Source: a virus (Duplodnaviria > Heunggongvirae > Uroviricota > Caudoviricetes). Taken from it: 6,553 nt of DNA. Under the pieces are notes generated by a model that saw only the letters and a list, made by a program, of their open reading frames with translations, had not been told where the DNA came from and searched no databases. The position numbers and the translations under genes are program-made. Below are positions 1-6,553 of the stretch, one piece after another (within the stretch, counting starts at the first letter, position 1; each line of letters opens with the position of its first letter). Location of the stretch: IMG/VR virus record IMGVR_UViG_2654587568_000008, positions 1 to 6,553 of that record, one strand, 5' to 3'.

Positions 1-928
1 GGATTGGATTAGGTTTAATAACATACCTATAATGTTCAGTCATGAGATATCAAGAATAAATGCTACGCCTGGTAACGTTCTTCTACAGAGCACCTCTGCT
101 TTTCCGCGCGTTTTAGTAAAAGCATCTGAGTTGAGAAAGGTTTTAGTTATACGTTCTTTTGAGCCTGATGATCACTTAAAGTTCATATTAGAGAACGCAA
201 TTGAGATATTTAAAAAACAGATGCCAGATCTTGATTGCGAGATTATTGATGTTAGATCGAAAGCTGAGTTTATTGATGCTCTAAATCAATATCAAGGTCA
301 TATTCTTGTTATGGATTGTCATGGAAACCATGATGGCAATGGGAGTCATGGATGGTTAATAATAGGTGAGGATAAAGTGGACACTTGGAGTTTGAGAAAA
401 ATAGCAAGAATTCCTCCTATCGTAATTCTGAGTGCATGTTTAACATCTGCCCTAAGTGGTTCTCATGCCTCTGTTGCTAATGGCTTCGTTATAAGTGGTG
501 CATTAAGTGTCATCGGAACATTACTGCCTGTAAATGCGATAGACTCTGCTATTTTTGTAAGTCGGTTGATCTACCGGTTTTACGAGTTTCCTTCGACGCT
601 ATCTACAAATTTTACACATGTTAATGTAAGGCTTTTTCTTTCTGTTTTTCTTAGGATGTCCTATGCAAGCGATTTAATAAGAGGATTTTTATCTGAAGAT
701 TTGATACCGAATAATTCATGGAAGAAAGATGCAGTTGACATTAACATGTATATAAACATGCTTCACCATGATTGGTATGATTATGTAATTAACAAATTGA
801 CGATGTTAACGGGGCTCACGAAAAAAGATGTACTTGATTTTATCGATAGAAAATTATTCATAACCGAAACTATGTGCTATAGCCAAATTGGATTTCCAGA
901 TGCAATCACAATTAGTCTTAAAGATTGA
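1..928 (+). CDS. CHAT/caspase-like (His-Cys dyad) protease-domain protein, probably 5'-partial (reading frame open from window edge; first in-window ATG at 32; stop TGA 926-928)
   Basis: Frame beginning at nt 2 has no stop before ATG 32, so the ORF may continue upstream, and there is no Shine-Dalgarno before ATG 32. Translation contains ...HILVMDCHGNHDGNG... (His-Gly), about 40 residues later ...PPIVILSACLTSALSG... (Cys), then ...ANGFVISGALSVIGTLLPVNAIDSAIF..., the layout of the CHAT/caspase catalytic core. The gene is much more AT-rich than the rest of the window. Family call is by eye, not HMM. Confidence 0.6.
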   Translation, partial: DWIRFNNIPIMFSHEISRINATPGNVLLQSTSAFPRVLVKASELRKVLVIRSFEPDDHLKFILENAIEIFKKQMPDLDCEIIDVRSKAEFIDALNQYQGHILVMDCHGNHDGNGSHGWLIIGEDKVDTWSLRKIARIPPIVILSACLTSALSGSHASVANGFVISGALSVIGTLLPVNAIDSAIFVSRLIYRFYEFPSTLSTNFTHVNVRLFLSVFLRMSYASDLIRGFLSEDLIPNNSWKKDAVDINMYINMLHHDWYDYVINKLTMLTGLTKKDVLDFIDRKLFITETMCYSQIGFPDAITISLKD

Positions 929-959
929 CAACTGTATGTAATAAATATGGCATACTTCC

Positions 960-1000
960 GGCACAGAGCGAATATAACAGATCAGGTTTAGCTCTGTGCC
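960..1000. repeat. Perfect 10-bp inverted repeat GGCACAGAGC (960-969) / GCTCTGTGCC (991-1000) with 21-nt spacer, between convergent genes at the GC-content boundary
   Basis: Arms are exact reverse complements. No U/T tract follows on either strand, so it is not a classic intrinsic terminator. Confidence 0.7.
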
Positions 1001-1035
1001 ATAGGTGTACCAACTCTCATCTGAGCTAATGCTCG

Positions 1036-1230
1036 TTACTCAATAACTCCCGCAAATTTGTAAATCTTGCGTGATGCCCATTTATTTGGGCATGATTTAA
1101 TATCAGGATCTGGAAAGTCTGGCCTGTATTTCTGGCCAGTTCTCCTGTTTACGCTGTTCCAGCGAAGAACTGTCGATACTGAAACTCCACAGAAGTTGGC
1201 GACTTGTTTAGTTGTCATTAAGTTGTTCAT
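1036..1230 (-). CDS. Small DNA-binding protein, excisionase/AlpA-like (Xis family), 64 aa
   Basis: ATG at 1228-1230 is preceded by GGAGG with 7-nt spacing. Stop TAA at 1036-1038. Product MNNLMTTKQVANFCGVSVSTVLRW...FPDPDIK...KW has the winged-helix pattern of phage Xis/AlpA proteins. Its start overlaps the upstream gene's stop by 1 nt (TAATG). Confidence 0.7.
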   Translation of the reverse strand: MNNLMTTKQVANFCGVSVSTVLRWNSVNRRTGQKYRPDFPDPDIKSCPNKWASRKIYKFAGVIE

Positions 1231-1850
1231 TACTTTACCTCCTGCGGCGGCTCCGGTAGCGGCATCCAGTGGGTTACTTTCGATGCCGGTTCTTCCACAT
1301 CGTCAGTAACTGCCCACCATTTGTTTCTCGACCAATCGTAATACCCTTCGAAGGTATCGCACTCAGTCCAGCCGTAAGACTTCCCCCAACACCAAACATA
1401 CTGTTTATCGTTCGGCATTCGCTCACTACAGCTTATCCAACCATCCGGAGTTACCGGAGAGTTGCCCGACAGCTCGTTCAACTTGTAAGTCTGGCTTACA
1501 GGTTTGGCACCATGAAGCATGGCGGCGCGGCAGGCGTTCCAGCCTTCATCAAAGCCGACTATGCCATTATTTAAAGACGGAAGAGCATCCGGCACCACCG
1601 ACACTGGCTGAGCCATATATAGCGGCTGAACATACCAGCCCTTTGATAACCAACTGTCAGCAATGTTTTTGCTCCTGGTTATTGCCGGAATACCTAAGCC
1701 ATTGTCTGAATGAAGCCACGCCACCGGCTCTGCTTCCAGTGATGCCAGAGCAATTTCATAAGCAAGGCGCTCAACATTGTCTCGCACGTCTAGGCTGCCG
1801 ATTCGTTCTTTGATTTCTTTAATCTGTTCCTTATCGGTGTAAGTGGTCAT
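1230..1850 (-). CDS. yfdT: DUF551-domain prophage protein (Eaa/YfdT-like), 206 aa
   Basis: ORF with ATG at 1848-1850 overlapping the upstream stop (TAATG). C-terminus ...WISCSERMP...VWCWGKSYGW...KVTHWMPLPEPP is the DUF551 signature as I recall it. Position after yfdS matches the K-12 yfdQ-R-S-T order. The symbol is by synteny and memory and is less certain than for yfdQ/yfdR. Confidence 0.7.
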   Translation of the reverse strand: MTTYTDKEQIKEIKERIGSLDVRDNVERLAYEIALASLEAEPVAWLHSDNGLGIPAITRSKNIADSWLSKGWYVQPLYMAQPVSVVPDALPSLNNGIVGFDEGWNACRAAMLHGAKPVSQTYKLNELSGNSPVTPDGWISCSERMPNDKQYVWCWGKSYGWTECDTFEGYYDWSRNKWWAVTDDVEEPASKVTHWMPLPEPPQEVK

Positions 1851-2212
1851 TATGCTCCAGCCTCCGGTGCTTTTGGCATTACTGCCCAGTGAGTGATATT
1901 AATATTTTCAAGGTCCCCGATCTGAAATGTCCACTGCCATTCTCCGGTTTCTTTTTGTCCCCAGGTGTACCAGAGAGAACGCCAGCCAATCAGCCAGCCT
2001 TCTCCGTTAGCATCAAATAACAGAACACTTTCATTTGCTGGTGGCAGTTCAACTGATACTGGTATTACTTTGTTTTCCTGTGCTGCACATTTAGCTTCAA
2101 GCGCATCGAATTTACGCACCAGGTATTCAGCATCCGTTTCATTCACTTTCAGGTCTCGTGGTACACATCTCCCGTGAAGAAACCCTTCCATTTCGAAAAC
2201 ATTCATGCGCAT
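1850..2212 (-). CDS. yfdS: DUF551-domain prophage protein YfdS, 120 aa
   Basis: ATG at 2210-2212 with GGAG 8 nt upstream. Stop TAA at 1850-1852. C-terminus ...GWLIGW...WYTWGQ...NITHWAVMPKAPE is DUF551-like. It overlaps the yfdR stop by 10 nt. Length and position match K-12 YfdS from memory. Confidence 0.75.
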   Translation of the reverse strand: MRMNVFEMEGFLHGRCVPRDLKVNETDAEYLVRKFDALEAKCAAQENKVIPVSVELPPANESVLLFDANGEGWLIGWRSLWYTWGQKETGEWQWTFQIGDLENINITHWAVMPKAPEAGA

Positions 2213-2739
2213 TTGCGTAACTCCGATAACTCGTTAAAACGTTCCATAAACATCCCGTAGGCATGGCCCGGAGCCAGTGGAATAACTTTGAACATCTCTG
2301 TTGTCGGGATACCTTCCAGTACTGGCCAGAAAGAGCCATCATCAAGCCCGAGATCGCGGCGTTCAGTTGCCAGCATGATGAGATCGGCATATTTCACAGG
2401 CGTGCTCATAACCGGGGGTAACCCGTATTTCTCACGGATTACGGCGTCTATTTTTTCTTCCATCCGTTTATAGTCAGGAAGAAGGCGTTTCAGTGGAGCG
2501 GGGATGTCCTGACAATACGCTTCTGTTGCATCATGCATTAACGCTTCAAAAGCAAATTCCTGCGGCACCAGCTGGCTGCAAAGCACCGCATGCTGGGCGA
2601 CACTGTAGAAGTGTGAAAGATGTCCTGCAAAGCGACAGATATTTGAAAGGGAAACTGCGATATCGTTAATCACGATGTCGTCTTTATTTATCTTGTCATA
2701 ATAAAAATGCTTCCCGGAAAAAGTTTTAATAAATGACAT
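2203..2739 (-). CDS. yfdR: HD-domain phosphohydrolase (5'-deoxynucleotidase-type) YfdR, 178 aa; start at ATG 2737-2739 rather than the track's GTG at 2751
   Basis: HD motif H...HD...D is visible (FAGHLSHFYSVAQHAV...ALMHDATEAYCQD). ATG at 2737-2739 is preceded by GGAG with 6-nt spacer, while the track's first codon at 2749-2751 is GTG. The resulting 178-aa length and its position between yfdQ and yfdS match K-12 YfdR from memory. Confidence 0.8.
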   Translation of the reverse strand: MSFIKTFSGKHFYYDKINKDDIVINDIAVSLSNICRFAGHLSHFYSVAQHAVLCSQLVPQEFAFEALMHDATEAYCQDIPAPLKRLLPDYKRMEEKIDAVIREKYGLPPVMSTPVKYADLIMLATERRDLGLDDGSFWPVLEGIPTTEMFKVIPLAPGHAYGMFMERFNELSELRKCA

Positions 2740-2832
2740 TTCGTTCTCCACTTTATATGCGCTGCACCGCGCTGAATTCTGCTAAAAGGAAGCTCTCACC
2801 ATCCGGTGATTATTGAGTTAATTACGTTTCCA

Positions 2833-2856
2833 TAAATGCCCCCGCAGGGGCATTTG
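2833..2856 (-). terminator. GC-rich palindromic hairpin AAATGCCCC-cgca-GGGGCATTT in the yfdQ-yfdR intergenic gap; candidate intra-operon terminator or attenuator (possibly bidirectional)
   Basis: 9-bp perfect stem (2834-2842 / 2847-2855) with 4-nt loop, U-rich at the 3' side of the stem on both strands. It lies in the 116-bp gap between the yfdQ stop (2868) and the yfdR start (2739). Confidence 0.45.
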
Positions 2857-2867
2857 CAGTAATGAAA

Positions 2868-3692
2868 TCAGGCGGTGAAAGTACCAATAAAGGTTTCTAC
2901 TTTGCTGTCTTTGAATTTCTCAACAAGCAGATCACGAAATTCGTTAGCCATTTCTTCCTGCATCGCTTCCAGCTGAATAATGCGCAGAACCAGTACAGGA
3001 CGATCGCCAGTGATAATGCTGAGGCGTAATTTAAACGGACGTTCTTTCAGGCCTTCAAACGGAACGCATTTAAATTCAAATGCCACTGGCATAATGTCTT
3101 TGGTTTTCGCTTCGACAGACTCCATCAGGGAGCGTTTGCCGCTGAAGTCATTGTCTTCAAAATCAGCGGTCTGGTTTGCTTCAATTGTGATTTTACGGAC
3201 TGCCGCAGCCGCTTTGGTTGCCTGAATGGTGTCACCATTAGCATCAAAGCCCACAAGGTAGTCGGCCCAGTCTTCAATCCATTCTGCCAGTGACTTCTGG
3301 GAGTTACGCTCGCCATTAACAGACAACAGAGCAGAAAACGGTGCTGTCTTTTTCAGTTTGAGGGTGGCGGTGTTATCTGCGTGACCTGGTTCATCAATAG
3401 TACCCAGGTTAAGCACACTGACGGCTCGCATATTATCGGCATCGATAAAGCAGCGGGTGCCTTCATCTGCAAGATCTTTAGAATAACGGGTAAAGTCATC
3501 GATGCTGGCAGTGGAAAGCGCACCACGGAAACGGAAGCGATTTAAATTAAATTTTTCCAGATCATGAATGCGGAAATTCTCAGGCAATGCCACAGCATCG
3601 GCACCAATCTTACTGATAATTTCATTAACACCCTGAGCAGAAATAAGGGCATGGATTTGATTAATTGCGGTTGCGTCTAAGTTCTGAGACAT
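2868..3692 (-). CDS. yfdQ: Prophage protein YfdQ (DUF2303 family, function unknown), 274 aa
   Basis: ATG at 3690-3692 is preceded by GAGGA with 6-nt spacer. Stop at 2868-2870. No recognisable catalytic motif. The 274-aa length and position upstream of yfdR match K-12 YfdQ from memory. Confidence 0.8.
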
Positions 3693-3757
3693 AATAAGTC
3701 CTCACTATATAAAGATATTCAGTGATGAGATAAATAATCAGTTAATTAAGAACGATA

Positions 3758-4120
3758 TTAATGACCTGCTGCGCGGAGTTTTCCGTCAGGTTCACCGGCA
3801 AGAGTCAGTAATTGTCCCTGGTCTTCCTGCAGAATAGTCAGGCGACCACCGCGATTGACATACATCGGCGTTTCGGTGGTGTCTTCTTCGGAAATTTTCC
3901 CGCGGTTAGTCGGGCGAACATATGAGAGTTTGTGTTTTATTTTCACACGGTTCTCATCAAACGGTTCGATTTCCAGGTTGAGCGAGACCTTACCTTTGGT
4001 TTTCGTGTTCATCACACCGGAAGCGACTTCACTGAGAACTGCGCCGATTTTGGTTTCAAATACGCCGCCGTCCAGCTCCCCGATAAATGCCTGCACATCA
4101 GTACTGCGTTCGCTAGCCAT
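3758..4120 (-). CDS. yfdP: Prophage protein YfdP-like, 120 aa (true start ATG 4118-4120; the track's 197-aa ORF starting at 4351 is an over-extension)
   Basis: Internal ATG at 4118-4120 (MASERSTDVQ...) is preceded by GAGGAG with 7-nt spacer. The upstream 77 codons translate to a Cys/Arg/His/Pro-rich, non-protein-like sequence and overlap strong RNA hairpins. The 120-aa length matches K-12 YfdP from memory. Confidence 0.7.
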   Translation of the reverse strand: MASERSTDVQAFIGELDGGVFETKIGAVLSEVASGVMNTKTKGKVSLNLEIEPFDENRVKIKHKLSYVRPTNRGKISEEDTTETPMYVNRGGRLTILQEDQGQLLTLAGEPDGKLRAAGH

Positions 4121-4168
4121 TTTGCTGCTCCTCATCATATCGACCCTGCAAGGTCGGTTGGTTTCTCC

Positions 4169-4257
4169 ACAAAACAGAGAAGAACACCTGCGGTGGCAGC
4201 CGCCCGGATGGATTGGGTTATGAGCCCGTCGTCCGGTGATGCTCTTCTCTGTTTTGT
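4169..4257 (-). repeat. 15-bp perfect inverted repeat ACAAAACAGAGAAGA (4169-4183) / TCTTCTCTGTTTTGT (4243-4257) enclosing a 59-nt GC-rich, internally structured loop; long stem-loop in the yfdP 5' leader
   Basis: Arms are exact reverse complements. The loop contains further short hairpins (GCGG/CCGC 4190-4203, GGGTT/GAGCCC 4215-4227). It sits between the DicF-like terminator and the yfdP ribosome-binding site. Confidence 0.6.
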
Positions 4258-4325
4258 AAAAAGAGCGGTACCAGCCGGAAGCAAGTGTACAAACTGGTAC
4301 CGCCAAAGCAGTGGCTGTTGTGGTG
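4258..4325 (-). ncRNA. Candidate DicF-like prophage sRNA with its intrinsic terminator (stem GCGGTACCAG / CTGGTACCGC at 4265-4303, then TCTTTTT)
   Basis: Minus-strand sequence ...CUGCUUUGGCGGUACCAGUUUGUACACUUGCUUCCGGCUGGUACCGCUCUUUUU resembles the E. coli DicF core as I recall it (UUUGGCGGUAUCAGUUUUAC...GCCGCCCUUUUU). A 10-bp GC-rich stem followed by a U tract is directly visible. Location in the early-left leader of a lambdoid immunity region parallels dicF in Qin. Not confirmed by covariance search. Confidence 0.4.
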
Positions 4326-4714
4326 GGGTTGTCACTCAGGCGTATGGTCAACCTGACAATCCGGTGTCCTCAACGGGGAAAGAGTAACCCCGCCATACTT
4401 ACCGCCGCGCCATTTCGCGGATTACCACAACGCTGAGAGCACTTAGCCAGTTACGGCACCACACTTTGTCGCGGCTCCATAAATGCCCTCATCGTTGCAC
4501 CCTGGTCTCTTCCCAGGCGTCAAACCGAATCGCCACGCTGGTTAGGCGTCTTATCAGCATCATCATTGACTTGCACATTCCGGCTACCTGGTTTGTTTGC
4601 CCGAGCAAGGAGTGGATTGTCCCCTTTAACGTCCCCAGACCGCTAACGACGCATGTGCCATACGCCGTGTTACAACCAAATTTTGTTAGTACCTTGTTTG
4701 TAGGTCTGGAAAGA

Positions 4715-4767
4715 AAGATAAAATGAAGTTGCGCATTATGCAAGTGTTTTTATTGCGAGATATGCAA
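4715..4767 (-). promoter_or_regulatory. Candidate OL/PL: two 15-bp operator sites TTGCGCATTATGCAA (4729-4743) and TTGCGAGATATGCAA (4753-4767), centres 24 bp apart, overlapping a candidate leftward promoter
   Basis: Both sites share TTGC-N7-GCAA with the OR site at 5537-5551. Minus-strand -35-like TTGCAT (4738-4743) and -10-like TATCTT (4715-4720) with 17-bp spacing are weak. An alternative -10 CATAAT (4735-4740) has poor -35 spacing. Confidence 0.45.
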
Positions 4768-4777
4768 TTTGATGGGT

Positions 4778-4802
4778 AATGAAAAGCCACCTTCTGGTGG
4801 CT
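4778..4802 (-). terminator. Intrinsic terminator downstream of cI (stem AGCCACC/GGTGGCT, loop TTCT, followed by TTTCATT on the minus strand)
   Basis: 7-bp stem (4785-4791 / 4796-4802) with 4-nt loop and a U-rich tail, located 22 bp past the cI stop codon. Confidence 0.55.
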
Positions 4803-4823
4803 AATTGATGTTGAGGTAGGGGG

Positions 4824-5516
4824 TTAATTGTGTCGCTTAAGGGTTTGTGACTGACTGATTAAGACCTTTCCAAAGACCATAAACCGGTGTTCGTTTTCGC
4901 TGGTAATTCCCCATTCGCGGTAAATCTGATTATCAGAAATTACCAGCAGTTTATCAGGTATCATTTGCAGTCGTTTGACGTAAATTTTATCATCAAAACC
5001 AAATACATATATACCATCCCCATCAAACTGATTGATACTGATATCAACGAAGATGAGATCTCCTGGCTCAATGGTTGGACACATACTGTCCCCACGAACG
5101 TTGATAACTTTAATGTGATTTGCTGGTCGTCCACCAAACATCGATACAGCATTATCAGTTCTGTATTCAATGGCATGAATCACATCAATGACATCACCGC
5201 CCTGGATAAGGCCATTTCCCGCACTGGCACTGACATCCAGCATTTCAATACGGAATACATCCTTCACCTGCGCAACATCCTCACTAATACTGTTTTTACA
5301 TACAGTATTACTTTTGAGGTCTGAGGTAAAGAGATCAGCAATATCAACACCTAAGCTCCTGGCAATATTACTCAGGGCTTGTTCAGTGAATTGTTTCTGC
5401 TTACCTGTTTCGAGGCGCGAGATATTCGCCGCATCCACTCCTATTGCTTCAGCGAGATCGGCGATTTTCATGTTCTTCGCCTGGCGAAGTTGTCTGACTC
5501 GATTTCCTATGTTCAT
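4824..5516 (-). CDS. cI: CI-type prophage repressor: N-terminal XRE-family helix-turn-helix plus C-terminal LexA-like S24 peptidase domain, 230 aa
   Basis: N-terminus ...MKIADLAEAIGVDAANISRLETGK is a helix-turn-helix. C-terminus carries the GDSM serine motif (VRGDSMCPTIEPGD) and a downstream lysine (IYVKRL) as in LexA/lambda CI, with a candidate Ala-Gly cleavage site (SASAGNG). Divergent from the Cro-like gene. Confidence 0.9.
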   Translation of the reverse strand: MNIGNRVRQLRQAKNMKIADLAEAIGVDAANISRLETGKQKQFTEQALSNIARSLGVDIADLFTSDLKSNTVCKNSISEDVAQVKDVFRIEMLDVSASAGNGLIQGGDVIDVIHAIEYRTDNAVSMFGGRPANHIKVINVRGDSMCPTIEPGDLIFVDISINQFDGDGIYVFGFDDKIYVKRLQMIPDKLLVISDNQIYREWGITSENEHRFMVFGKVLISQSQTLKRHN

Positions 5517-5613
5517 GCGTTTATTACATTTCTTTATTGCGCGTTAAGCAAATCAACTTGCGCAAAATATTTGCGTGAAATAATATGCTCATCACGCAAT
5601 ATGTGGAGGTTAT
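5517..5613. promoter_or_regulatory. OR/PR/PRM divergent control region with repeated TTGCG half-sites
   Basis: TTGCG occurs at 5537, 5558 and 5571, CGCAA at 5561 and 5595. 15-bp site TTGCGCGTTAAGCAA (5537-5551). Palindromes TTGCGCAA (5558-5565), CGCAAA-ATA-TTTGCG (5561-5575) and TTGCGTGA...TCACGCAA (5571-5578 / 5592-5599). Candidate PR: -35 TTGCGC (5558-5563), 17-bp spacer, -10 TAATAT (5581-5586). Candidate PRM (minus strand): -35 TTGCTT (5546-5551), 17-bp spacer, -10 TGTAAT (5523-5528). GGAGG at 5605-5609 precedes the cro ATG. Confidence 0.6.
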
Positions 5614-5874
5614 ATGCAATCACCATTACGGAATGTGCGTAAGGCGCACGGATTTACTTTGCAGCATGTTGCTGCGGGCGTTCAGGTCAATCCAGCGACG
5701 CTGAGTCGTATTGAAAGACTGGAACAAATTCCATCTATCGATCTTGCAGAACGTCTGGCCAATTTTTTTAAGGGTGAAATCAGCGAAATGCAGATTCTTT
5801 ATCCGGCACGTTTTCAATCTAGCCAAAACCAGAATGGGTTTAAACCACAGGAACAGGAGGTAAGCCGTGGGTAA
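5614..5874 (+). CDS. cro: Cro-like helix-turn-helix regulator (XRE family), 86 aa
   Basis: ATG at 5614 with GGAGG 4 nt upstream. Helix-turn-helix ...FTLQHVAAGVQVNPATLSRIERLEQIPS. Divergent from cI across the operator region. Stop TAA at 5872-5874. Confidence 0.85.
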   Translation: MQSPLRNVRKAHGFTLQHVAAGVQVNPATLSRIERLEQIPSIDLAERLANFFKGEISEMQILYPARFQSSQNQNGFKPQEQEVSRG

Positions 5875-6418
5875 GCATCACTGGAAAGTGGAAAAACAAC
5901 CTGAGTGGCACGTGAAAGCTGTCAGAAAAACTATCGCGGCATTGCCTGGGGGTTACGCTGAAGCTGCTGACTGGCTGGATGTAACAGAGAACGCTTTATT
6001 CAACCGCCTTCGTGCAGATGGCGATCAGATTTTCCCGCTGGGATGGGCAATGGTTTTACAGCGCGCGGCTGGCACTCACTACATTGCGGATGCTGTCGCA
6101 CAGTCTGCTGGTGGGGTGTTCGTATCGCTTCCTGAAATTGAGGAAGTAGAGAACGCCGATATAAACCAGCGCCTGCTGGAAGTCATCGAACAGATCGGGA
6201 ATTACTCAAAGCAGATTCGTTCGGCAATCGAAGATGGGGTCGTGGAGCCACACGAGCAGACAGCAATTAATGATGAGTTGTATCTGTCAATTTCGAAGCT
6301 CCAGGAACATGCAGCACTGGTCTACAAAATCTTCTGCGCTCCAGAAAAGAGTGACGCCCGCGAGTGTGCAGCTCCGGGCGTCGTGGCGTTTTGTGTCTGT
6401 GGAGAAACTAACGCATGA
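5867..6418 (+). CDS. CII-like / YdaT-type prophage regulatory protein (putative), 183 aa, GTG start, translationally coupled to cro
   Basis: GTG at 5867-5869 is preceded by AGGAGG (5855-5860) and overlaps the cro stop (GTGGGTAA). Possible helix-turn-helix ...GYAEAADWLDVTENALFNRL. Position immediately after cro is typical of CII/YdaT-like regulators. Family assignment is by position and memory only. Confidence 0.7.
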   Translation: MGKHHWKVEKQPEWHVKAVRKTIAALPGGYAEAADWLDVTENALFNRLRADGDQIFPLGWAMVLQRAAGTHYIADAVAQSAGGVFVSLPEIEEVENADINQRLLEVIEQIGNYSKQIRSAIEDGVVEPHEQTAINDELYLSISKLQEHAALVYKIFCAPEKSDARECAAPGVVAFCVCGETNA

Positions 6419-6553
6419 ACAGTTTAACGGCAAATAACCGTTTGTCGCAACAGCTTGTATGGGTCCACCACATATTGCAATTTTTATTCTCTTTTAAAAT
6501 ATATTCCACGGGCGTCATTAGTGCGAGCGCCTTGTGGGGTCTTTTGCTGTTAT
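6415..6553 (+). CDS. Start of a further ORF, 3'-truncated by the window end, coupled to the upstream gene by an ATGA overlap; function unknown
   Basis: ATG at 6415-6417 overlaps the TGA stop at 6416-6418. GGAGAAA lies 7 nt upstream. Frame is open for 46 codons to the window end (MNSLTANNRLSQQLVWVHHILQF...). The AT-rich stretch 6470-6510 could instead be non-coding. Confidence 0.3.
   Translation, partial: MNSLTANNRLSQQLVWVHHILQFLFSFKIYSTGVISASALWGLLLL

Follow-up and report, generated by a model that had tools for sequence, protein, structure and literature searches.

YfdR of Escherichia coli K-12 (b2361) is encoded in the cryptic prophage CPS-53 and binds domain I of DnaA in a manner dependent on Phe46, in competition with DiaA and DnaB (PMC4776307, Noguchi & Katayama 2016). 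In that study, purified YfdR bound DnaA directly, the binding was lost with DnaA F46A, and inhibition was observed in vitro; initiation at oriC was inhibited by multicopy yfdQRS or yfdQRT, with yfdQ among the genes needed together with yfdR for the replication-inhibition phenotype (PMC4776307). DnaA binding and inhibition of initiation by YfdR are also treated in PMC12122000 and PMC5448010. The 2016 authors noted that the overexpression effect was possibly an artefact, and deletion of yfdQRST gave no replication phenotype (PMC4776307). Their Discussion had already proposed a role in phage takeover by analogy to lambda P and cited homologues of phage SfV (PMC4776307); hence the takeover hypothesis is not new. 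Lambda P, an early phage protein for which DnaA binding and inhibition of host initiation have been reported, is a functional analogue with no sequence relationship to YfdR: it binds domain III of DnaA and is the helicase loader, whereas K-12 YfdR is an HD hydrolase that binds domain I.

K-12 YfdR also dephosphorylates deoxynucleoside 5'-monophosphates (dNMPs) with low affinity, according to Zimmerman 2008 as cited in PMC4776307; in the same citation, its nucleotide affinities are described as falling far below YfbR's and its function as one that 'remains elusive'. Knockout of yfdR left the CMP yield unchanged. E. coli YfbR, a 5'-deoxynucleotidase (PDB 2paq/2par), has the HD domain in common with YfdR and, unlike yfdR, is not a phage gene. 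Here, we describe the yfdR locus in a 6,553-nt stretch of a Caudoviricetes genome (IMG/VR record IMGVR_UViG_2654587568_000008, positions 1 to 6,553), hereafter called the window.

Identification of yfdR

The gene is located on the minus strand of the window.

2203..2739, minus strand: yfdR, 178 amino acids plus stop codon (TGA, 2205-2203), predicted HD-domain phosphohydrolase, orthologue of K-12 YfdR

The deduced protein was identical to K-12 YfdR at 175 of 178 residues (98%) without gaps (E = 2e-137), had the same length and start, and carried the substitutions A146T, N150K and D169E (conservative). It was 100% identical to gp37 of phage cdtI by tblastn and matched PHROG 318, 'deoxyribonucleoside 5' monophosphate phosphatase' (E = 8e-110), and yfdR DNA was present in 2971 of 5426 complete E. 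coli genomes. By sequence, the identification is far above chance and the gene family is well populated. The earlier note had recognized the product as YfdR from the letters of the window, and this identity was confirmed.

Comparison with phage genomes placed the locus more closely. The whole left operon of cdtI was about 98.8% identical in DNA to that of the window, and nearly identical left regions are carried by the viable phages Ayreon, mEp460 and cdtI; SfII gp34 and homologues from Stx2c phages were also close. In contrast, the immunity region (cI/cro) of cdtI and Ayreon differed, their cI being 675 nt long as opposed to 693 nt in the window, where cI had the same length as SfII cI and matched the SfII / Shigella flexneri type. 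We place the gene in a lambdoid prophage of the cdtI / mEp460 / SfII / CPS-53 type, with E. coli or a near relative as its source, and positions 2739-2203 hold an already annotated prophage copy of yfdR whose identity was already known. The re-identification itself is of small import, as the gene was named, its start was already in RefSeq and the hypothesis on its role dates from 2016.

Family and predicted fold of YfdR

The earlier note had reported an H...HD...D metal-binding motif, which could be read directly from the codons: His50 is CAT at 2592-2590, His69-Asp70 is CAT GAT at 2535-2530, and Asp119 is GAT at 2385-2383. These four residues were invariant in an alignment of 21 sequences reaching down to 32% identity, as were Arg36, Gly39, His40, Asp78, Lys84 and Glu126, and Glu73 was nearly invariant. 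The AlphaFold2 model (pLDDT 88.2, pTM 0.86) consisted of eight helices in an all-alpha HD-type fold. Its best Foldseek match was Atu1052 of Agrobacterium tumefaciens (PDB 2gz4; E = 4e-10, TM 0.73 over almost the full length), the closest solved structure; further matches, all HD proteins, were DatZ (probability 0.97), HDDC2 and YfbR. Searching the PDB with a YfdR profile also gave 2gz4 (1e-28), followed by Lin2634 (7e-7) and YfbR (3e-6), and OxsA, HDDC2 and DatZ were matched as well. Atu1052 was found by phmmer (E = 7.5e-14) at about 26% identity and is roughly 20 residues longer than YfdR owing to insertions. The curated Pfam thresholds for HD families were not reached, the scores being 24.3 bits for PF12917 YfbR-like (cut-off 25.9) and 17.0 for PF13023 HD_3 (cut-off 22.5). 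The family thus lies just outside the current Pfam models, and the profile and fold searches put YfdR in the HD superfamily. On this sequence and model evidence, YfdR is predicted to be a metal-dependent HD-domain phosphohydrolase of 178 residues.

Its relation to YfbR was more distant. The HD-x2-E-x4-D-x-P-x-P-x-K block could be aligned, with His69-Asp70, Glu73 and Asp78 of YfdR lining up with HD, Glu72 and Asp77 of YfbR in the pairwise alignment, and the HD-x2-E signature with its downstream Asp was found, MHDATEAYCQDIPAPLK aligning with YHDASEVLTGDLPTPVK. The identity was, however, only 33% over 40 residues, the fold comparison gave a TM of 0.43, and the score with the NCBIfam equivalog model NF003009 was 19.9 bits, the cut-off being 122. 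YfdR was therefore rejected as a YfbR equivalog and is assigned by sequence to a distinct, Atu1052-like subfamily. The name 5'-deoxynucleotidase, which the earlier note had used, is the RefSeq product name; PMC4776307, however, gives nucleotide affinities far below YfbR's and a function that 'remains elusive'.

YfdR might instead act on another nucleotide, such as a dNTP as for DatZ, a modified nucleotide as for OxsA or an immune signal, with a role in genome modification or counter-defence. The distant profile and fold matches do include DatZ, the dATPase of phage S-2L, and OxsA, and Atu1052 was deposited without an assigned function. However, DatZ and OxsA were matched weakly (E = 0.19 and 0.0026; TM 0.45), the operon has no genes for modification or defence alongside yfdR, and the published activity, by the RefSeq name and as cited in PMC4776307, is on dNMPs. 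We consider a different substrate very unlikely.

Start codon of yfdR

Counted from its first in-frame start codon, GTG, the open reading frame (2751..2203, minus strand) encodes 182 residues; from the ATG at 2739-2737, it encodes 178. The earlier note had preferred the ATG, and the arrangement of the initiation region agreed with this choice.

2740..2751, minus strand: translation-initiation region, Shine-Dalgarno GGAG at 2749-2746 and 6-nt spacer before the ATG at 2739-2737

A protein of 182 residues beginning MENEMSF at the GTG (2751-2749), as in the ORF track, would use the first in-frame start after the preceding stop, and the GTG is kept among close E. coli relatives. However, this codon overlaps GGAG within the Shine-Dalgarno box and is not preceded by a Shine-Dalgarno of its own. 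Where other lineages retain the box, AAG, ACG or AGG takes the place of the GTG (ST64B, Citrobacter, Atlantibacter, Enterobacter), or RTGGAGAA stands 11 nt from the ATG, out of frame (Salmonella, Buttiauxella, Lelliottia and Yokenella loci). In Salmonella phage ST64B, an in-frame TAA five codons upstream of the ATG separates the box from the start. Furthermore, 110 of 120 cluster representatives began at the homologous Met and none at the upstream codon, and the 537-nt ATG form is annotated in the K-12, PGAP, cdtI and Ayreon records, all public annotations checked being in agreement. Shine-Dalgarno geometry, frame comparison and homologue N-termini thus ruled out the GTG, and initiation there is hardly credible. 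The GTG start arises only from a mechanical longest-ORF call. The earlier note had presented the ATG as a corrected start, which was not borne out, since the public records already use it.

Leftward operon and repressor region

The features surrounding yfdR, in the direction of leftward transcription, are as follows.

4824..5516, minus strand: cI-like repressor gene, with HTH (E about 1e-11) and S24 LexA-type autopeptidase (Peptidase_S24, E = 6e-19)
4729..4767, unstranded: OL-type operators, two exact TTGC-N7-GCAA sites (4729-4743 and 4753-4767)
4157..4263, minus strand: long conserved leader hairpin, an inverted repeat with a stem of ~25 bp, just upstream of the yfdP Shine-Dalgarno in a leader of roughly 600 nt
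3758..4120, minus strand: yfdP, 99% identical to K-12 YfdP, first gene of the leftward early operon (PF27127 YfdP in relatives)
2868..3692, minus strand: yfdQ (DUF2303), 98.5% identical to K-12 YfdQ (PF10065, E = 8e-92)
2818..2866, minus strand: hairpin 1, a long stem-loop resembling a terminator, immediately following the yfdQ stop codon; its core is AAAUGCCCC-UGC-GGGGCAUUU and its U-tail, UUUAUGG, is weak
1850..2212, minus strand: yfdS orthologue, 93% identical to K-12
1230..1850, minus strand: DUF551 gene, 206 amino acids (PF04448, E = 7e-17)
1036..1230, minus strand: excisionase gene (xis), PHROG 1553 excisionase (E = 2e-35), cdtI gp34 excisionase; last leftward-operon gene in the window

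The genes from yfdP to xis are tightly packed or overlapping, and yfdR is the third gene of this compact leftward operon, which has operators at its start that match the ones next to the cI-like repressor gene. A third exact TTGC-N7-GCAA site was found at 5537-5551 in the cI/cro intergenic region and a one-mismatch site at 5585-5599. Three exact sites compare with 0.25 expected in the window, a number reached in 1 of 200 shuffles. The region thus encodes a predicted cleavable LexA-like repressor whose gene is flanked on each side by matching operators, the arrangement of a lambda-type PL operon, and a terminator hairpin (4802-4785) follows the repressor gene. PL, placed from the operators only, would overlap the OL-type operators (4729..4767); a consensus promoter scan gave no convincing PL.

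The four genes yfdP-yfdQ-yfdR-yfdS have the same order and strand as in K-12, at 99, 98.5, 98.3 and 93% identity, respectively, and the published minimal set yfdQ-yfdR-yfdS is complete in the window. The last 10 nt of yfdR are shared with the beginning of yfdS (ATG at 2212), an arrangement suggestive of translational coupling of the two genes. Downstream, K-12 carries yfdT, whereas only its first 42 codons are kept here: the first 42 residues of the DUF551 protein are homologous to K-12 YfdT (76%) and are joined to a different DUF551 body, and the gene is therefore a mosaic replacement of yfdT. In the other direction, the repressor, OL/PL and the hairpin in the leader of yfdP are no longer present in K-12 CPS-53, whereas the window has the repressor, operators and hairpin. 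The earlier note had described an apparently intact early operon under repressor control. The HTH and S24 domains of the repressor, the shared operators and the packed genes down to xis are consistent with repressor control, but yfdT is not intact.

The leader hairpin was 85% identical to ST64B, compared with 66-69% for the flanking coding DNA, and its folding energy of -67.7 kcal/mol (z = -5.25) was equalled in 0 of 200 shuffles. An HK022-type put RNA in the PL leader was rejected, as a blastn comparison (word size 7) with both arms of HK022, left and right, gave no match; Rfam gave no match at E <= 1 over the whole window. With respect to an N protein and nut sites (boxA/boxB), no N-like gene is annotated in relatives, Rfam had no match and a boxA-like string was not conserved. 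The annotations of relatives, Rfam and the HK022 comparison together yielded no antitermination system able to pass the hairpin upstream of yfdR. This hairpin 1 showed several compensatory pairs in RNAalifold (e.g. columns 24-40, GC/CG/AU) and a terminator is annotated at the corresponding position of the Ayreon record, but a consensus terminator scan did not call it. By sequence comparison, it probably serves as a partial terminator or attenuator in the yfdQ-yfdR spacer.

Possible roles of YfdR

YfdR homologues occurred in phages of Bacillus, Caulobacter, Pseudomonas, Vibrio and other hosts and in many bacterial phyla, mostly without yfdQ; yfdP or yfdQ lay near the homologue in only 6 of 80 species-level loci. 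Judged from this distribution over distant hosts, the conserved function of YfdR is therefore probably the enzyme activity rather than binding to E. coli DnaA. YfdR could even be purely a phage enzyme of nucleotide metabolism, a phosphohydrolase acting on dNMPs or other nucleotides to shape precursor pools, with DnaA binding being incidental or an overexpression artefact; a possible artefact was conceded by the 2016 authors (PMC4776307). The catalytic residues are invariant across homologues of very different hosts, and in virulent phages the homologue adjoins replication or nucleotide genes, namely those for DNA polymerase and dUTPase (Tunturi_4), a DNA replication protein (vB_OspM_OC), DNA ligase (Seuss), thymidine kinase (Sophrita), and a helicase and replication initiator (PGT2). 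On the other hand, the binding of purified YfdR to DnaA, its loss with F46A and the in vitro inhibition are published (PMC4776307), the substrate affinity reported there by citation is low, and the enzyme and DnaA roles can coexist. A role confined to nucleotide metabolism is accordingly a serious possibility, although we rate it at somewhat below an even chance.

The earlier note had cited DnaA binding and inhibition of replication by the yfd cluster, in agreement with the Phe46-dependent binding and the multicopy yfdQRS and yfdQRT effects in PMC4776307, and we propose the following model. In a lysogen, the repressor would hold PL off. SOS-induced cleavage of the repressor would allow transcription of yfdP-yfdQ, transcripts passing the weak terminator after yfdQ would give expression of yfdR-yfdS-DUF551-xis, and YfdR might then dampen initiation on the host chromosome and/or trim the dNMP pool during early lytic development. 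Taken as a whole, an orthologue of K-12 YfdR, an HD phosphohydrolase translated from the ATG in a repressor-controlled leftward operon, with takeover as its proposed role, is very probably the best explanation of the locus. Near-identical, repressor-controlled copies of yfdPQRS exist in cdtI, Ayreon and mEp460, whereas the K-12 remnant is without promoter and repressor; the takeover idea can therefore be tested in a live phage.

Hairpins upstream of yfdR

The yfdQ-yfdR spacer contains two further stem-loops in the 5' UTR of yfdR.

2783..2796, minus strand: hairpin 2, UCACC-GGAU-GGUGA, 5 pairs
2759..2770, minus strand: hairpin 3, short covarying stem closing an invariant G[GUGCAG]C loop

In hairpin 2, pair 71-80 was G-C in seven sequences, A-U in two and G-U in two. 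The core of hairpin 3, GGTGCAGC at 2768-2761, lies about 10 nt upstream of the yfdR Shine-Dalgarno box, the hairpin being 24-36 nt upstream of the start codon. Its stem has 3 bp in the window and 3-6 bp elsewhere. In the covariation analysis, 87.7% of cells were paired compared with 58.6% in shuffles (0 of 500), with double changes in four of five pairs, and RNAalifold also supported the stem. Rfam on 2725-2880 gave only a chance STnc130 fragment (E = 4.5) and no family for the spacer, and a literature search for the hairpin 3 sequence gave unrelated matches only; the GUGCAG-loop hairpin may be new.

Two other readings of hairpin 3 were rejected. A boxA/boxB (nut) reading was discarded because other lineages do not conserve the boxA-like GCTTCCTTTTA and hairpin 3 lies downstream of the terminator-like hairpin. 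In cdtI, GTGCA-containing repeats lie inside the replication gene and the 8-mer GGTGCAGC was found 8 times compared with 2.25 expected; however, of these copies one was a GGAGGTG Shine-Dalgarno and two were a tandem duplication, and GGTGCAGC as a replication-iteron core was treated as coincidence.

Hairpin 3 might be an undescribed post-transcriptional operator that lets an RNA-binding protein or antisense RNA regulate yfdR jointly with excision and antirepression genes, placing YfdR in a lytic-commitment regulon. We offer this reading only tentatively and consider it rather doubtful. If functional, the GUGCAG-loop hairpin shared by yfdR, xis and antirepressor genes would suggest that lytic-commitment genes are under a common post-transcriptional control across a large group of enterobacterial prophages.

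A cassette of hairpin 3 and GGAGAA was also observed upstream of non-homologous genes in related enterobacterial prophages, often in two or three copies per prophage. The genes following it encode excisionases (Exc, DUF4224, PrtN-like), a KilA-N protein and Rha/ANT antirepressors.

Identification of yfdR and its start codon

The minus-strand ORF from 2751 to 2203 has GTG as its first in-frame start, giving 182 aa; translation from the ATG at 2739-2737 to the TGA stop at 2205-2203 gives 178 aa. The HD signature was read directly from the codons of the window: H50 (CAT, 2592-2590), H69-D70 (CAT GAT, 2535-2530), and D119 (GAT, 2385-2383). The deduced protein was identical to K-12 YfdR (b2361) at 175 of 178 residues, with the substitutions A146T, N150K, and D169E, and 100% identical to gp37 of phage cdtI. 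This high identity and the codons themselves bore out the earlier note, which had reported a YfdR with an H...HD...D motif. yfdR DNA was present in 2971 of 5426 complete E. coli genomes.

The note had also preferred the ATG to the GTG. GGAG at 2749-2746 lies six nt 5' of the ATG; the GTG (2751-2749) overlaps this GGAG, and nothing resembling a Shine-Dalgarno sequence precedes it. Salmonella phage ST64B (68% aa identity) retains AAGGAG but has a TAA in frame five codons before the homologous ATG. A conserved ATGGAGAA box in Salmonella, Buttiauxella, Lelliottia, and Yokenella loci is out of frame because it lies 11 nt from the ATG, and the triplet matching the window GTG is AAG, ACG, or AGG in Citrobacter, Atlantibacter, and Enterobacter loci. 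Among the 120 cluster representatives taken from the protein search, 110 begin at the homologous Met (M-[SP]-[FY]-[IL]-x-T) and none begins four codons earlier. The 537-nt ATG form is annotated in K-12 (NP_416862.2), by PGAP (WP_000008176.1, WP_000008189.1), and in cdtI (YP_001272550.1) and Ayreon. From the Shine-Dalgarno geometry, the comparative data (ST64B TAA, box frame, and homologue N-termini), and these public annotations, we therefore concluded that the choice of ATG is right. The GTG was rejected as a start: it lies inside GGAG, has no Shine-Dalgarno sequence of its own, and is not kept in frame across lineages. The ATG is not a "corrected" start, since public records already use it; only a mechanical longest-ORF call was corrected.

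Protein family and fold

Against Pfam YfbR-like (PF12917), YfdR scored 24.3 bits (cut-off 25.9); its match to PHROG 318 ('deoxyribonucleoside 5' monophosphate phosphatase') had E = 8e-110. The best-supported structural relative was Atu1052 (2gz4), found in the PDB by phmmer (E = 7.5e-14) and by a profile of 21 sequences, down to 32% identity (E = 1e-28). The same profile matched Lin2634 (E = 7e-7), YfbR (2paq; E = 3e-6), and, more weakly than these two, OxsA, HDDC2, and DatZ. Invariant in the alignment of these 21 sequences were G9, A28, L31, R36, G39, H40, V47, H50, L67, H69, D70, A74, D78, P82, K84, D119, L123, and E126. The AlphaFold2 model was all-helical (pLDDT 88.2, pTM 0.86), and its best Foldseek match was again 2gz4 (E = 4e-10, TM 0.73), followed by DatZ (probability 0.97, TM 0.45), HDDC2, and YfbR (TM 0.43). 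The profile, alignment, AlphaFold2, and Foldseek results thus indicated that YfdR is a genuine HD-domain phosphohydrolase. The YfdR block MHDATEAYCQDIPAPLK lines up with YHDASEVLTGDLPTPVK of YfbR, yet YfdR falls far below the cut-off of the NCBIfam YfbR equivalog (19.9 versus 122 bits). We place YfdR in an Atu1052-like subfamily, akin to YfbR but distinct from it.

Organization of the early region

Features of the window around yfdR
5516-4824, minus strand, cI-like repressor with HTH and Peptidase_S24 domains, first along the minus strand
5585-5599, TTGC-N7-GCAA operator-like dyad with one mismatch
5537-5551, third exact TTGC-N7-GCAA operator, between cI and the cro-like gene
4802-4785, minus strand, terminator hairpin after the cI-like gene
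4767-4729, two exact TTGC-N7-GCAA operators (4753-4767 and 4729-4743)
4121-4728, minus strand, ORF-poor leader of ~600 nt, from the OL operators to yfdP
4120-3758, minus strand, yfdP
3692-2868, minus strand, yfdQ
2740-2867, minus strand, structured yfdQ-yfdR spacer of 128 nt
2739-2203, minus strand, yfdR
2212-1850, minus strand, yfdS, overlapping yfdR by 10 nt
1850-1230, minus strand, DUF551 gene
1230-1036, minus strand, xis

TTGC-N7-GCAA dyads lie on either side of the cI-like gene, and the window holds three exact sites versus 0.25 expected. Identities to K-12 were 99% for YfdP, 98.5% for YfdQ, 98.3% for YfdR, and 93% for YfdS; K-12 YfdT is represented only by its first 42 residues. A prophage of E. 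coli GPEC389, integrated beside yjjG, matched 99% of the window at 97.5% identity; the isolated phages cdtI and Ayreon matched 81% of it at 98.5-98.8% identity. Considering the repressor, operators, gene order, and these matches, the "intact early operon under repressor control" of the note is therefore a reasonable inference, with PL as a putative promoter; neither an N/nut-type nor a put-type antitermination system was found for it. The leader at 4121-4728 yielded no convincing gene and matched neither the HK022 put region nor any Rfam family, and no N-like antiterminator is annotated in relatives. Taken jointly, the identification and context of yfdR are highly probable.

A long hairpin (4157-4263, minus strand, stem ~25 bp) lies in the PL leader just 5' of the yfdP Shine-Dalgarno sequence (MFE -67.7 kcal/mol for 4115-4275, z = -5.25). 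It was 85% identical to ST64B, with only 66-69% identity in the flanking coding DNA, and was absent from K-12 CPS-53; it may be similar to the hairpin in the lambda N leader that is sensitive to RNase III. The DUF551 gene (1230-1850, minus strand) was 76% identical to K-12 yfdT over the first 42 codons only and diverges after, and contains a recombination joint. The immunity region matches the SfII / Shigella flexneri type instead of the one in cdtI and Ayreon, a sign of mosaicism at the immunity module. The left end of the window cuts an ORF for the C-terminal part of a large CHAT-domain protein (32-928, plus strand; 710 aa in cdtI orf33). Its gene, read in the opposite direction to the early operon, occupies the interval between int and xis, where a moron or defence gene is typically found.

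Distribution and possible role of YfdR

The published background given in the note was confirmed by Noguchi & Katayama 2016 (PMC4776307): YfdR binds DnaA domains I-II in a Phe46-dependent manner, and multicopy yfdQRS or yfdQRT inhibits initiation in vivo, as extracts do in vitro. Those authors found no phenotype on deletion of the yfd cluster, admitted that the overexpression effect may be an artefact, and, citing Zimmerman 2008, described nucleotide affinities much below those of YfbR and a function that 'remains elusive' (PMC4776307). A role of the YfdQRST proteins in ancestral phage growth, by analogy with lambda P, was already proposed there, with homologues in phage SfV cited (PMC4776307), and was repeated later (PMC12122000, PMC5448010). 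CMP yield is reported to be unchanged by yfdR knockout. The cdtI annotation contains no lambda-P-like helicase loader. The dNMP phosphatase activity, DnaA domain I binding, and initiation inhibition on oversupply are taken from the literature; orthology, catalytic motif, fold, start codon, operon anatomy, and shared operators were established here. The finding is correct, but each of its elements (gene, start codon, and hypothesis) was already known.

YfdR homologues were present in 333 phage records, among them virulent and jumbo phages, with Bacillus, Caulobacter, Pseudomonas, Vibrio, Rhizobium, and others as hosts, and there often adjoined genes for replication or nucleotide metabolism (for instance DNA polymerase, dUTPase, ligase, and thymidine kinase). 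yfdP or yfdQ lay within 3 kb at only 6 of 80 species-level genomic loci, and the gene 5' of yfdR in enterobacterial prophages can be yfdQ, rdgC, or none; this marks the enzyme as an independent module. Catalysis is most likely its conserved role, and DnaA binding may be a lineage-specific addition. That enzyme activity alone is the main biological role is possible, and we hold this view only tentatively. On the main reading, induction would derepress PL, the terminator-like hairpin after yfdQ would be partly read through, and YfdR, expressed early, would dampen host initiation and/or trim dNMP. This physiological takeover role is much less certain than the identification and context of yfdR.

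A hairpin cassette shared with other genes

The yfdQ-yfdR spacer is conserved throughout and stays with yfdR where yfdQ is missing, as in SfII. RNAalifold of 11 spacer sequences gave three hairpins with 28 pairs, 11 of which showed compensatory double changes. Hairpin 1 follows the yfdQ stop directly; its stem (AAAUGCCCC/GGGGCAUUU) is terminator-like and carries a weak U-tail.

2770-2759, minus strand, hairpin 3, invariant G[GUGCAG]C loop on a covarying 3-6 bp stem

Across 13 distinct yfdR leaders, 87.7% of hairpin 3 cells were paired versus 58.6% in shuffles (0/500 as high), and one pair occurred in all four Watson-Crick types. Irrespective of the gene upstream, all enterobacterial yfdR loci examined carry it 28-36 nt 5' of the ATG.

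Other genes also have this hairpin upstream, with a GGAGAA Shine-Dalgarno box after it and the start codon at 24-36 nt from the motif: KilA-N in cdtI and GPEC389, the ST64B excisionase, and, on IMG/VR contigs, genes for small proteins (Exc-type, DUF4224-type, and PrtN-like) and for Rha/ANT antirepressors. The genes behind it in enterobacterial prophages (yfdR; Exc, DUF4224, and PrtN-like excisionases; KilA-N; Rha/ANT) are non-homologous. Instances lie in phage cdtI (L113, 39806-39821) and at the loci L005 (22433-22448), L006 (6375-6392), and L103 (2789-2806), with many more in IMG/VR (L114-L233). The IMG/VR scan, whose sole requirement was GGTGCAGC-N8-22-GGAGAA, gave at least three flanking Watson-Crick pairs in 33 of 131 matches versus ~1.6% by chance. 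Among 31 distinct instances, two stem pairs outside the selection were paired in 28 and 24, G-U present; the two pairs beside the closing G-C were imposed by selection and so carry no evidential weight. Neither Rfam nor a literature search with the sequence gave a match, and no trans-acting factor was identified. The cassette could hypothetically be a shared translational or mRNA-processing operator. It lies outside the yfdR claim and is the sole item here that might be new.

Iteron-like tandem repeats within the cdtI replication gene gp46 (37760-37900) also hold GTGCA cores (TTCAC...GGTGCAGC / GTAGTGCA), and the 8-mer GGTGCAGC occurs eight times in cdtI versus 2.25 expected; any link to the GUGCAG loop is probably a coincidence.
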